Below are positions 6,684 through 27,706 of a stretch of 64,000 nucleotides of DNA, piece by piece; position 1 is the first letter of the stretch; each line of letters opens with the position of its first letter. The translations under genes were made by a program, and so were the position numbers. Source of the DNA: Nitrospiraceae bacterium. Its GTDB lineage: Bacteria > Nitrospirota > Nitrospiria > Nitrospirales > Nitrospiraceae. The stretch spans positions 2,793,574-2,857,573 of the forward strand of contig JAXLZC010000001.1 in assembly GCA_046351095.1 (NCBI GenBank), read 5' to 3'. A model generated the notes under the pieces. That model ran no database searches. It was not told the DNA's origin and saw only the letters and a program-made list of their open reading frames with translations.

Positions 6684-7066
6684 GATCAATTGTTTTTGGA
6701 AGCTGGTGTCTAATGGAGGTATCACCATTATCTCTGCCTGAAGCCCAGGGTTCTCGCCCGCGCGCAAGTGATTGCGTGCTCTGCTCAAGCATGCCACCCA
6801 TACTGCTCTAAAGCAGCACTCAAAATGCTGAAATCTAGTCGGCCTAACTGCCCAAGGCAAACTGTGTCGTTTGAGCCTTGATTGATCTCCGACCCCGGTA
6901 AGGTTGGGCGCTAGCTGCAGACGGCCAGGAGCGGAAGTTCGTTGCCGAGATCGCACCGTCATAAAGCGATCCTTCGCTCTGACGCATTACGTTTTAAGCT
7001 CACCTGCGGGCGACAGACCGCGAAGCGAGCTGGCGAACGGCAGGTGGAGTAAAGGATTAGCCAGCA

Positions 7067-24102: not shown

Positions 24103-25391
24103 ATGCCTGAAGTGTATAACTGGCAGCTGGGACGGAAGATGCTGTATCCGTACGAGGAACGGCATCCGAAGTGGCAGTTTGCCTTCGTATTCAATATCAA
24201 CCGCTGCTTGGCGTGCCAGACCTGTTCGATGGCCGACAAGTCTACCTGGCTGTTCTCGAAGGGCCAGGAGTACATGTGGTGGAACAACGTGGAAACCAAG
24301 CCCTACGGCGGGTATCCGCAGTTCTACGACGTGAAGGTCACCCAGCTCATCGAGCAGGTGAATCCGGGCGGTCAGGTCTGGAACGTGCGCGTGGGCCGCA
24401 AGCACCATGCGCCGTACGGGGTGTTCGAAGGGATGACCATTTTCGACGCGGGGGCCAAGGTCGGCCAGGCGGCGATCGGGTACATTCCGACGGACCAGGA
24501 GTGGCGGTTCGTCAACATCTATGAGGACACGGCCACCTCGATGCGCGCCATTGTGGAAGGCATCGATAAGACCGGGTTCTCGCGCGACGAACCGTGGAAG
24601 ATGACGGGGAGCTCCCTCCCGGAGCATGAGACCTTCTTCTTCTACCTCCAGCGCATCTGTAACCACTGCACGTACCCCGGTTGCTTGGCCGCCTGCCCGC
24701 GCAAGGCGATCTACAAGCGGCCGGAAGACGGCATCGTGTTGATCGACCAGAACCGGTGCCGCGGGTACAAGAAGTGCGTGGAGCAGTGCCCGTTCAAGAA
24801 GCCGATGTATCGCGGCACGACCCGCGTGTCGGAGAAGTGCATCGCGTGTTATCCGCGTATCGAGGGTAAGGACCCCTTGACGGGCGGCGAGCCGATGGAA
24901 ACGCGCTGTATGGCGGCCTGCGTCGGGAAGATCCGCATGCAGTCGCTCGTGCGCATCGGCGAAGACGGCCTCTGGGCCGAAGATCGCTGGCACCCCTGTA
25001 CTACGCGATTCGCGTGGAGCAGGTGGCGCTCCCGCTGTATCCGCAGTGGGGCACCGAGCCCAACGGCTACTACATTCCGCCGCGTCATGCCCCGCGTGGG
25101 TACAACCGGCAGATGTTTGGCCCGGGCGTGGACAACGCCATCGAGAAGTATCTCGTGCCGAGCCGCGAATTGTTGGCGGTCCTCCAGCTCTGGCGGGCCA
25201 GTCAGCAGATCGTGTTCCGGTACGACGTCATTCCGGGGCCGAAGGTGTTCGAAACCCAGATCCACGGGAAGCGGTTCGAGATGTACAACGACACCGTGCT
25301 GGGCTTCAACAAGTCGGGCAAGGAAGTGGCGCGCATCCAGGTCGAAGAGCCGATCTACATCAGACCGGCCGAACGCGTAACCTGGTTGTAA
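24103..25391 (+). CDS. nxrB: nitrite oxidoreductase beta subunit (4-cluster Fe-S protein); frame broken by an apparent 1-nt deletion near 24994-24997
   Basis: The N-terminal 298 codons are in frame 1 (MPEVYNWQLGRK...CLACQTC...EDRWHP). The conserved C-terminus (LYYAIRVEQVALPLYPQWGTEPNGYYIPP...ERVTWL) continues in another frame from 24996 to 25391. The frame-1 tail is Arg/Ser-rich nonsense. One inserted base would give a 429-aa protein. Confidence 0.85.
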
Positions 25392-25454
25392 GCAGAGTCG
25401 ACCAGTTGCTGCACGTGTGCGTCTAGACGAGCGCGCGTGCGGTGACCAGGCTCA

Positions 25455-25488
25455 GAAGGGGCAGGGATCGCAAGGTCCCTGCCCCTTC
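25455..25488 (+). terminator. 13-bp perfect stem-loop downstream of nxrB (terminator-like, no clear U-tract)
   Basis: gaaggggcaggga-tcgcaagg-tccctgccccttc. Confidence 0.45.
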
Positions 25489-25597
25489 GTGCGTCTGGAG
25501 CCGATGATACGGAGGCAATGATGAAGCTGGAAGAGCAAACAGCCCAGTTCGATGTGTGCGGCGTGTTGCAGTAGGAGGCGGTCGCTATAACCGAGCA

Positions 25598-25730
25598 TAG
25601 CACTCGGCATGCAGCACTGAGCCCTCAGTCCTCAGCGCTCAATTCTCAGCACTCGATTCTTTGTTCCCAGCACTGAGCCCTCAGTCCTCAGCACTTATGA
25701 CTGAGCACTCATGCCCCAGCACTCACTCGT
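25598..25730. repeat. tandem degenerate heptanucleotide repeat tract (consensus CAGCACT, about 19 units)
   Basis: Phased reading: tagcact cggcatg cagcact gagccct cagtcct cagcgct caattct cagcact cgattct ttgttcc cagcact gagccct cagtcct cagcact tatgact gagcact catgccc cagcact cactcgt. A 25-nt block is repeated exactly (25612-25636 and 25668-25692). Confidence 0.85.
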
Positions 25731-25734
25731 GCCG

Positions 25735-27480
25735 TTATGCCGTCGGCGCGTGCGACTCTTCTTCTGTTTGCCGCAGGGTGTAGAGATAGTGGTAGAGCCC
25801 CTGTTGCGCGAGCAGTTCGTTGTGGGTGCCGCGTTCGACGATCCCGCCTTTATCAAAGACCAGAATCTGATCGGCGCGTTGGACGGTCGTCAGCCGATGG
25901 GCGACGACGAAGGTCGTGCGTCCGCGCATAAGGCGATCCAGGGCTTCCTGCACGAGGCGCTCGGATTCGGTGTCCAAGGCGGAGGTCGCTTCGTCCAGCA
26001 AGAGAATGCGCGGGTTCTTGAGGATCGCGCGCGCAATGGCGAGTCGCTGGCGTTGGCCGCCGGAGAGATTTACACCCTTCTCGCCAACGATTGTCTGATA
26101 GCCGTCCGGGAACTTCACGACAAATTCGTCCGCCAATGCAGCCTTGCTGGCGGCCACGACCTCGTCATGGGTGGCGTCTTCGCGGCCGTACCGAATGTTG
26201 TCGAAGATCGTCCCGCCGAAGAGGACGGTTTCCTGCGGTACGAGGCCGATCTGTTTATACAGGCTGTTCAGTTTCAGGTTGCGCAGATCGTGGCCGTCGA
26301 GCGCGATGGTCCCGTCCGTCGGATCGTAAAACCGATGGAGAAGGTTGATGAGGGTTGTCTTGCCGGAGCCGGTCGGGCCGACGAGCGCGATCACTTCGCC
26401 GGGACGCGCCTCGAAGCTGACGTTCGTCAAGACCGGCGTGCGCGGATCGTAGAAGAAGCCGATCCGTTCGGCGCGCACATGGCCTTGGACGGGCGGCAGG
26501 TCGATGGCGTTCGGCAGTTCGCGGACTTCCGGTTGGGTGTCGAGAATTTCGAAAACCCGTTGCATGGCGCCCTGCGCTTCTTTGATCTGCGCAAAGACGC
26601 GGGCGGCGGCGCCGAACGGCCCGATGAGAATTCCGGCAAAGAGCACAAAGGCCAGCAGGTCGCCCGGCGACACTTGCCCTTCGATCACTTGCGTGCCGCC
26701 GTACCAGAGTACTGCCGCGCCGGCCCCGAAGGTGCAGAGCGTGATCACGGGAATGAAGATGGCCAGCACGGTGGCGCGGCGCAGGGCGACGCCGACGGAT
26801 TGCTGCAACGTCGTCGCAAAACGCGCTTCTTCGCGCTGGGTCTGCACGAACGATTTCACGATGCGGATGCCCGCCAAGACCTCTTCGACGATCGTGGAGA
26901 GGTGGGCGCTGTGATCCTGAATGTCGGTCGAGAGCTGCTTTAATCGTCGGCCGAAGAGCTTGGCCACCACAGCCAACAGGGGCAGCAGCAACAGGATCAA
27001 GAGGCACAGGCGCCAGTTCATGGCGAAGAGGAAGCCGACGCCGCCGATGAACGTCACCAACTGCTTGATCATGTCGATGGGTGTATCGGTCACGATGTTT
27101 TGAATCGTGCCGATGTCGTTCATGACGCGCGACAGGAGTTCGCCGGTCCGACGTTTGGCAAAAAAGCTGAGCGACAGTCCGTTTAAGTGGCGGAACACGT
27201 GTTGGCGGAAGTCCGCCATGATGTGCTGCGAGACCCAGGCAAGCAGATAGCCGTGCCCGACGGACACGACGCCTTGGATGGCCACCACGGCGACGAAGAC
27301 CCAGATGAGCTGCATCATGCCGCCGTAGTCGCGTTGGACGGTGATGACGTCCCACAGGCGTCCGACGACGCGGAGCATGACGAGGTTCAGCAGCGCGACG
27401 ATAGCGATGCAGAGGGTGGCCACGGCCATGCGGCCGAAATATGGACGTAAAAATGGGAGAAACCGACGGTAATAGTTCAT
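25735..27480 (-). CDS. ABC transporter, fused permease/ATPase (MsbA-like exporter)
   Basis: Trimmed to the ATG at 27480 (MNYYRRFLPFLRPY...). Six-TM domain, then Walker A GPTGSGKTT, the signature LSGGQRQR and Walker B ILLLDEATS. Confidence 0.85.
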   Translation of the reverse strand: MNYYRRFLPFLRPYFGRMAVATLCIAIVALLNLVMLRVVGRLWDVITVQRDYGGMMQLIWVFVAVVAIQGVVSVGHGYLLAWVSQHIMADFRQHVFRHLNGLSLSFFAKRRTGELLSRVMNDIGTIQNIVTDTPIDMIKQLVTFIGGVGFLFAMNWRLCLLILLLLPLLAVVAKLFGRRLKQLSTDIQDHSAHLSTIVEEVLAGIRIVKSFVQTQREEARFATTLQQSVGVALRRATVLAIFIPVITLCTFGAGAAVLWYGGTQVIEGQVSPGDLLAFVLFAGILIGPFGAAARVFAQIKEAQGAMQRVFEILDTQPEVRELPNAIDLPPVQGHVRAERIGFFYDPRTPVLTNVSFEARPGEVIALVGPTGSGKTTLINLLHRFYDPTDGTIALDGHDLRNLKLNSLYKQIGLVPQETVLFGGTIFDNIRYGREDATHDEVVAASKAALADEFVVKFPDGYQTIVGEKGVNLSGGQRQRLAIARAILKNPRILLLDEATSALDTESERLVQEALDRLMRGRTTFVVAHRLTTVQRADQILVFDKGGIVERGTHNELLAQQGLYHYLYTLRQTEEESHAPTA

Positions 27481-27706
27481 GGGATATGGGAGCCCGGCCT
27501 CAACTGCTCGGCGGCGGAGTCCGCGCGAGGCGGCGCCCATCATACGGCGGCACTCGGATCGAGTGCAATTCGAAGATGCGGAAAACCGGTGTGCGAGGGG
27601 AGTGGATGCGGTGGGCGAAGGATGGGCGTCGCTCGCCGACAAAAGAAAGGGCGGGCCTCCGTGTAGTCACAGAAGCCCGCCCCCCAATTGCGAACCGACG
27701 ACCGAC

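Follow-up and report, generated by a model that had tools for sequence, protein, structure and literature searches.

A heptanucleotide array behind the exporter stop codon

In this work, we analysed a repeat tract lying between the 3' ends of two convergent genes, one encoding an nxrB-like iron-sulfur subunit and the other an MsbA-like ABC exporter, within a 64-kb window (i.e. the whole stretch of DNA analysed). The following features were delimited at this locus:

24103-25391, plus strand: nxrB-like iron-sulfur subunit gene in two frames (ORFs 24103-25380 and 25014-25391; TIGR03478 in both pieces)
25455-25488, unstranded: perfect 13-bp G+C-rich inverted repeat with an 8-nt loop (arms 25455-25467 and 25476-25488, 100% complementary)
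25598-25730, minus strand: heptanucleotide tandem array of 19 units, based on phasing and periodicity statistics, sited just after the exporter stop codon
25599-25733, minus strand: predicted self-paired RNA hairpin of the array (47 pairs: 23 G-C, 15 A-U and 9 G·U; apex loop at about 25661-25668)
25612-25636, unstranded: exact 25-nt block (3.5 units), copy 1, sequence CAGCACTGAGCCCTCAGTCCTCAGC
25654-25667, unstranded: two irregular units, CGATTCT TTGTTCC, at the top of the predicted hairpin (phasing and fold)
25668-25692, unstranded: exact 25-nt block (3.5 units), copy 2, sequence CAGCACTGAGCCCTCAGTCCTCAGC
25735-27642, minus strand: MsbA-like ABC exporter (permease and ATPase), ORF of 635 codons (TIGR02204, TIGR02203; coding score 196.7)

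The exporter matched TIGR02204 and TIGR02203 with E values of 1e-164 to 1e-171, under the curated cut-offs. Its stop codon occupies 25735-25737 and is separated from the array by 4 nt, the distance given in an earlier note on this DNA. On the opposite side, the nxrB-like gene stops at 25389-25391, i.e. 206 nt from the array, and the inverted repeat 25455-25488 lies in between. This repeat could fold in both senses, neither strand carries a U-run, and it is probably the shared transcript end of the two convergent genes. Since the array lies between the exporter stop codon and this hairpin, it is expected in the 3' UTR of the exporter mRNA and would be reached from nxrB by read-through only. No intrinsic (Rho-independent) terminator, defined as a G+C-rich hairpin with a U-run, was found on either strand from 25300 to 25800, nor any sigma-70 promoter-like site around the tract. 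Comparison with the Rfam covariance models gave only a chance-level miRNA match, located at the hairpin 25446-25494 (E 0.3), whose 19 bits compare with a gathering score of 90.

The unit is hereafter named as CAGCACT on the plus strand and as AGUGCUG in the exporter mRNA sense. Read in steps of 7, the tract 25598-25730 gave 19 phased heptads, including 15 that end in CT and five exact CAGCACT, in agreement with the earlier note. The duplicated block that it had reported corresponds to the two exact 25-nt copies listed above, 56 nt (8 units) apart, which may be read as a sign of growth by in-register segmental duplication. It had further placed the AGCACT cores at spacings of 14 or 21 nt throughout; the spacings are 14, 35, 21, 21, 14 and 14 nt along the tract, so that all are multiples of 7 and one departs from the description.

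Identity of the tract with itself at lags 7, 14 and 21 was 0.55, 0.62 and 0.55, respectively, against 0.27 +/- 0.04 in 5000 dinucleotide-preserving shuffles (z = 6.8, 8.3 and 6.4), and 0 of the 5000 shuffles equalled the tract. The maximum identity over any lag was 0.47 among 2000 shuffles, and the tract itself did not exceed 0.27 at the remaining lags up to 29. Tandem Repeats Finder returned rows of period 7 and period 14. The period-7 signal is thus above what composition predicts. The view of the tract as non-coding was borne out by the ORF calls, as the tract sits between two stop codons and no ORF passes through it. Phase-variation (contingency) repeats are near-perfect, lie in a promoter, a 5' UTR or a reading frame, and switch expression by their unit number; the tract is degenerate (five exact units among 19) and located 3' of both flanking genes, which sets it apart from them.

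Within the 64-kb window, the tract is the only such heptamer array. Isolated CAGCACT copies in the low-G+C island (at 6814 and 7062) had also been pointed out; the six copies that the window contains outside the tract are at chance level (5.4 +/- 2.3 expected).

Heptamer arrays in the host genome and its relatives

The host genome (3.19 Mb, 61% G+C) was scanned for lagged identity with a 42-nt window and an identity threshold of 0.6. This recovered 52 tracts at lag 7, against 0-2 each at lags 5, 8, 10, 11, 13, 16, 17, 19, 20, 22 and 23. Three unit families were distinguished in the G-rich sense: AGTGCTG (i.e. that of the window tract), GAAGACG (with variants GTGAGAC and GTAAGAC) and GAATGTT, represented by 13, 25 and 8 sub-tracts, respectively. 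Clusters of at least three cores in phase numbered 46 modulo 7, the tract included, and 0-2 for moduli 5, 6 and 8-11. According to a codon-usage gene caller trained on the host genome, 43 of the 46 sub-tracts are intergenic. The genome-wide count proposed earlier thus makes the tract one of about 45 intergenic heptamer arrays. AGCACT/AGTGCT hexamers are under-represented genome-wide and equal on both strands, which rules out a polar motif of the Chi or KOPS type.

Arrays are anchored to ORF ends in a defined orientation. Twenty-five of them, including the tract (4-12 nt past the exporter stop, purine sense), start 0-15 nt past a stop codon or include it; the genes concerned score well, and all 25 arrays are in the purine sense of their mRNA. 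About 11 arrays precede an ATG by 5-60 nt; these read in the pyrimidine sense, and no Shine-Dalgarno-like sequence separates them from the ATG. Both cases follow a single polarity rule, whereby the G-rich strand runs 5' to 3' away from the nearest ORF; consequently, two-armed sites read as a G-rich arm followed by a C-rich arm on the top strand. An automated count supported this polarity (33:10, p 6e-4), with arrays lying a median of 11 nt from their proximal ORF and 84 nt from the other one. Arrays are over-represented in convergent spacers (12, with about 6 expected) and under-represented in divergent ones (2, with 5.5-8.5 expected; p about 0.007-0.009). Orientation was better predicted by the adjacent gene (about 25:3) than by the replichore (31:14), which rules out an explanation by replication strand. 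The same polarity was found in three congeners and a sister genus (19:3) and at low-G+C, mostly Nostocales, loci carrying the AGTGCTG unit (20:2 at stops, 8:1 at starts); it was weaker at high-G+C loci of other phyla (25:10), where ORF calls are noisier.

In order to assess conservation, relatives were compared with the host genome (G000). AGTGCTG-type arrays were found in G001, G003, G004, G008 and a few others, and none in G002. The GAAGACG triple-core pattern was counted 51 times in G000 and 7 times in G008, and 80 other genomes of the order had counts of 0-1. The nxrB/exporter synteny is retained in the congeners G002 and G004, whose spacers of 600-760 nt are array-free. Twenty-nine exporter homologues (65-77% identity) were retrieved from one metagenome scan, in which the best match reached 77% identity and no close strain was represented; an AGTGCTG-type array followed the exporter stop in none of the 29, and a different heptamer array followed it in one. 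Conservation, one of the points raised by the earlier note, therefore holds for the AGTGCTG family, which is present in relatives, and fails for the orthologous site. As the array is missing at that site, any function at the tract is argued to be dispensable.

The unit extends far beyond the order. A search with three exact CAGCACT units over one genome per prokaryotic species gave at least 120 stretches; among the matches listed were Nostocales, Acidobacteriota, Chloroflexota, Gemmatimonadota, Nitrospirota, Planctomycetota, Chlorobiaceae and others. AGTGCTG triple-core matches numbered 588 in Calothrix PCC 7716 and 118 in a Chlorobiaceae MAG, against 0-1 in controls, and Nostoc also carries the CAGCACT/AGTGCTG unit. 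Belonging to a genome-wide set of intergenic heptamers, with a unit shared with these cyanobacteria, the tract deserves the comparison with the short tandemly repeated repetitive (STRR) sequences of cyanobacteria that was made from its letters.

Predicted RNA folding and PF05635 genes

Folded in the exporter sense, the tract reached -62.5 kcal/mol (z -5.2), 0 of 200 shuffles folding as well, and the resulting hairpin is predicted to cover the first ~135 nt of the exporter 3' UTR. In the nxrB (plus) sense, the value was -35.9 kcal/mol (z -1.5). When G·U pairs were forbidden, the energy rose to -44.8 kcal/mol, equal to the shuffle mean, and the long hairpin was gone; the structure would therefore be specific to RNA and to one strand. 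This is explained by the unit itself: AGUGCU self-pairs through two central U·G wobbles and its complement AGCACU does not, so that the two halves of the array form a hairpin in one sense only. Over the whole AGTGCTG family, mean folding was -0.33 kcal/nt in the purine sense against -0.12 kcal/nt in the opposite sense. The GAAGACG and GAATGTT families folded weakly in both senses, and the hairpin thus cannot be a common property of the three-family class; the trait common to all three unit families is an outward strand that is C-poor and G-rich. The tie of the tract to the exporter stop codon and its folding in the exporter RNA sense alone are points that go beyond the earlier note. The hairpin is predicted from one sequence, no relative having an array at this site.

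The arrays further proved to be associated with genes of the 23S-rRNA intervening-sequence (IVS) protein family, PF05635. The host genome has a single such gene (C1:1878337-1878648, 120 bits), situated downstream of a methyltransferase-like (ubiE-like) gene, between its stop codon and the ATG that opens the following gene, and it is enclosed in the following feature:

C1:1878289-1878741: PF05635 stem-loop module, with inverted AGTGCTG arms enclosing the PF05635 ORF

The two AGTGCTG-family arms, GTGCTGCGTGCTGAG and CTCAGCACGCAGCAC, are 410 nt apart and their 15-nt cores are perfectly complementary. The chance of finding arrays on both flanks of a given gene of G000 is about 3e-4. Taking G000, G001, G004 and G008 together, 10 of 11 PF05635 genes are bracketed by short-period inverted arrays, whose units comprise the GAAGACG type, GGTCATT, several other heptamers and, in two cases, a 9-nt period. 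The GGTCATT arms, found in G001, are a rotation of the STRR2 unit TTGGTCA. The orthologous spacer contains the gene and its AGTGCTG arms in G000, G004 and G005, cargo-less arrays of other units in G001 and G003, and a plain spacer of 81 nt in G002.

The PF05635 link is strong for this local bracketing only. Across 80 genomes of the order, co-occurrence of the unit and PF05635 showed no enrichment, PF05635 being present in 3 of 7 unit-positive genomes and in 37 of 80 overall. At the tract itself no IVS-type module was found, as there is no such ORF in or beside it and its units all run the same way. The host genome encodes RNase III, and the predicted duplex of the tract comprises 47 pairs. By analogy with known intervening sequences, the PF05635 bracketing and the states of the orthologous spacer tie these repeats to putative RNase III-processed intervening-sequence elements.

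Relation to known repeats and possible origins

Intergenic heptamer repeats have been known since 1990, when STRRs were described in heterocystous cyanobacteria (Mazel et al. 1990, as cited in PMC4692102), and in 2007 heptamers were reported, with polymerase slippage as the proposed cause, as the most over-represented long simple repeats of many bacteria (Mrazek et al. 2007, as cited in PMC4679880 and PMC4692102); they are still without established function or origin. The host arrays resemble STRRs in their 7-nt tandem units, their many dispersed intergenic copies and the presence of several families per genome. They differ from them in their non-cyanobacterial host, which encodes NxrAB-like proteins and whose relatives make up an order outside the cyanobacteria, and in their lower copy number (about 45 arrays). 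Moreover, the unit CAGCACT is distinct from those of STRR1-3 (CCCCAGT, TTGGTCA and CAACAGT), so that the tract is no STRR in the strict sense.

A closer parallel is provided by the intergenic arrays of Xanthomonas (GGGAATC) and Nostoc PCC 7120 (GGGGAYT), for which neither a function nor a regulatory effect was found (Rehm et al. 2015, PMC4692102). There, the ORF is nearer on the 5' side of the G-rich strand (on average 28 against 160 nt), 70-75 convergent pairs are involved, arrays are scarce between divergent genes, and they vary among close species (PMC4692102). The host arrays share with them dispersed intergenic heptamers, ORF-proximal G-strand polarity, convergent pairs, few divergent spacers, and variation in length and sequence between close relatives. 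In contrast, AGTGCTG, GAAGACG and GAATGTT are mostly devoid of the G-runs required for a G-quadruplex, and the host is a nitrite-oxidoreductase-bearing member of another phylum. As the polarity is kept by such units, it cannot be a quadruplex property.

Two other systems were considered. Direct TAACTGA repeats occur in marine Beggiatoaceae, some cyanobacteria and Bacteroidetes (MacGregor 2015, PMC4679880); like the host arrays, they are intergenic and gene-oriented, with one unit spread across distant phyla without an evident transfer mechanism. Unlike the main class of the host genome, which follows stops, they lie mostly upstream of starts, in a stop-rich orientation and in sets of 2-6. In Coxiella, the tandem heptamers of the 23S IVS vary in number among strains; they precede the S23p ORF and lie where RNase III cuts (PMC4990558). 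The likeness with S23p/PF05635 IVSs of Coxiella and Leptospira resides in the host PF05635 gene, which lies inside inverted arms of the tract's own unit, whereas the tract has no ORF, has a single orientation and lies outside 23S rRNA, in what is expected to be an mRNA 3' UTR. Our literature search retrieved no paper pairing Nitrospira with heptanucleotide repeats and none naming AGTGCTG/CAGCACT as a bacterial repeat.

Being tandem, dispersed, non-coding and endowed with G-strand polarity, the tract is a heptanucleotide long simple-sequence repeat of the STRR-like class, and as such a further example of a known, still unexplained class of bacterial repeats. Three handles on this class emerged: (i) the ORF-end polarity holds for units that mostly lack quadruplex G-runs; (ii) the two AGTGCTG strands differ sharply in RNA, and the sense that forms the hairpin is the one found after stop codons; (iii) an AGTGCTG stem surrounds the sole PF05635 gene, and among six related genomes one orthologous spacer ranges from filled through differently filled to empty.

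We consider it about an even call that the tract is a cargo-less member of the genome-wide STRR-like family and that any effect is exerted in RNA, as a 3' duplex. The array would have been created and resized by slipped-strand mispairing or by unequal exchange between units. It may belong, together with the arms of IVS-type modules, to one class of fast-turnover stem-loops, of which the cargo-bearing form would be the intervening-sequence module. The array would be dispensable for the exporter. Its effect would be exerted in the exporter mRNA, where the likeliest form is a double-stranded 3' structure open to RNase III, as are IVS stems; the duplex could also stand in the way of 3' exonucleases, and of read-through from either of the two converging transcripts, exporter and nxrB.

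Alternatively, the array may be a functionless by-product of slippage under neutral drift, its position and orientation reflecting merely what the neighbours tolerate: purine units, which carry TGA/TAA, close the reading frames after genes, and pyrimidine units bring neither starts, stops nor structure ahead of a start codon. We regard this as possible, if on balance doubtful. It is consistent with the absence of the array at the orthologous site in congeners and metagenomic relatives, with the patchy distribution across related genomes, with the different units filling one orthologous spacer in different genomes, with the stop codon lying inside the array in several cases, with the 2-4 stop codons that the exporter-sense tract carries in each of its frames, and with the lack of any function found in Xanthomonas (PMC4692102). 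However, drift does not predict a median anchoring of 11 nt to one ORF where hundreds of nt are possible on the opposite side. Perfect (GAAGACG)n arrays are stop-free yet show the same polarity, which also rules out stop codons in all frames as a general rule. The abundance of the AGTGCTG unit in distant phyla, with controls at 0-1, and the specific association of arrays with PF05635 genes likewise argue against neutrality.

The preferred reading of a cargo-less array acting in RNA, if at all, may be carried further: bacterial heptamer arrays would be more than products of slippage, deriving from a widespread stem-loop insertion element whose complete form, the 23S rRNA intervening sequence, carries the PF05635 four-helix-bundle gene. 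The arrays would represent its arms and its cargo-less remnants, and the tract an RNA-processed solo element. We find this unlikely. If true, it would account for STRRs, for the excess of 7-nt repeats and for the polarity seen in Xanthomonas, in Nostoc and in the host genome, and such elements would settle at ORF boundaries, G-strand outward, in many phyla.

The plus strand of the tract might instead serve as a Rho-loading (rut-like) stretch, halting read-through from nxrAB before it enters the exporter gene in antisense. The nxrAB operon is typically strongly expressed in nitrite oxidisers. A rut site calls for Rho and for an unstructured RNA stretch, rich in C and poor in G, of at least ~80 nt. 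Over the 133 nt of the tract, the plus strand has a C content of 37.6% and a G content of 18%, its fold is no more stable than those of shuffles (z -1.5), and Rho is encoded in the genome. A similar arrangement is seen at the second nxrB copy of the genome (C1:2102129-2102560; 97% identity across the end of the gene), behind which come a hairpin and, after it, pyrimidine-type heptamers over 160 nt (41% C, 11% G). Against this stand the anchoring of the array to the exporter stop rather than to that of nxrB, its location beyond a strong hairpin, the co-directional arrangement of the genes flanking about half of the stop-adjacent arrays, and the finding of the same polarity in Nostocales, cyanobacteria not being known to encode Rho. 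This makes a role in Rho loading quite improbable.

Still less credible is a platform of repeated sites for a protein that reads single-stranded heptamers or the repeated duplex, candidates being the PF05635 protein itself and OB-fold proteins of the cold-shock or S1 type. Regular unit spacing with a conserved core of 5-6 nt and variable other positions would suit such a protein; one cold-shock protein (CSP) per heptamer was raised as a binding idea for TAACTGA (MacGregor 2015, PMC4679880), and a heptamer-binding factor was postulated in work on Nostoc recO/recF. No candidate protein co-varies with the unit, PF05635 presence is not predictive across the order, and three unrelated unit families coexist in one genome, all of which speak against it.

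Diversity-generating retroelements have Avd accessory proteins, to which PF05635 proteins are related. This kinship, together with a polarity that matches telomeric G-strands exactly on either side of the intergenic centre, would suit break-repair scars, i.e. G-rich repeats added to the 3' ends of a double-strand break by a reverse-transcriptase or telomerase-like activity, from which the outward G-strand polarity would result; we judge these scarcely believable, given that the higher-order periods of paired arms are independent and the arms were not copied from a single template, and that a single RVT_1 gene is present in G000 and none in the array-bearing G001, G004 and G008, which leaves a reverse-transcriptase origin unsupported. 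The tract probably matters little to the nitrite oxidiser's own biology.

PF05635 module and its arms

A single gene of the 23S rRNA intervening-sequence protein family PF05635 was found in the genome (G000). It lies in the spacer that separates a ubiE-like gene from the following ORF, and is enclosed by arms of the heptamer family to which the studied tract belongs (AGTGCTG in the G-rich sense, CAGCACT on the opposite strand). These arms include a 15-nt perfect complement, its two halves 410 nt apart.

G000:C1:1878289-1878741 (L230:1453-1905), PF05635 gene and arms: AGTGCTG-family arms on both sides.
G001:C6:24285-24599 and flanks (L232), PF05635 gene of a congener: GGTCATT / AATGACC arrays either side.

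The ubiE-like spacer of G000 was compared with the orthologous loci (L240-L247) of the related genomes G001-G005. PF05635 with AGTGCTG arms occupied the spacer in three of these six genomes (G000, G004 and G005); two others carried cargo-less arrays of other units (TGACGNN-type in G001, CATTGAN-type in G003), and the spacer of G002 was plain, with a length of 81 nt.

The GGTCATT arms of the G001 gene correspond to a rotation of TTGGTCA, the classical unit of the cyanobacterial STRR2 repeats. In a sister genus (G008:C55; L238 and L239), two PF05635 genes were found between inverted arrays of the GCCAGTTGA-type, the period of which is 9 nt rather than 7; the arms of such modules are therefore not strictly heptameric.

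Intergenic regions downstream of nxrB and exporter genes

Hairpins were located downstream of both nxrB copies of G000, the second of which is 97% identical over the gene end.

Window 25455-25488, between the convergent genes: G+C-rich hairpin, perfect 13-bp.
G000:C1:2102560-2102820, outside the window, 3' region of the second nxrB copy: G+C-rich hairpin, then heptamers.

No U-run was detected at the window hairpin on either strand; if this hairpin ends transcripts, termination there would depart from the canonical intrinsic pattern. Downstream of the second hairpin, pyrimidine-type heptamers (CGTCTTT and CAGCACT-like) extend for about 160 nt, with a content of 41% C and 11% G. The window nxrB-like gene is split between two reading frames in the assembly (ORFs 24103-25380 and 25014-25391; site 24985-25016), both pieces of which matched the type II DMSO-reductase beta-subunit family.

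On the exporter side, heptamers of another kind (CCTCTAG / CCCTAGC type) form an array about 5 nt past the stop codon of a distant exporter homologue on metagenome contig Ga0194132_10000692 (L136). As this 7-kb locus contains four lag-7 tracts, its source is another heptamer-rich organism.

Relation between unit families

Within a single spacer (G000:C1:466105-466203), a CAGCACT-family arm stands opposite a GAATGTT-family arm. All differences between these families are transitions, and the two can still pair through G.U, which suggests that they form one superfamily. The sole match to reverse transcriptase (RVT_1) in G000 is located at C1:1988867-1989280, within a 529-codon ORF.
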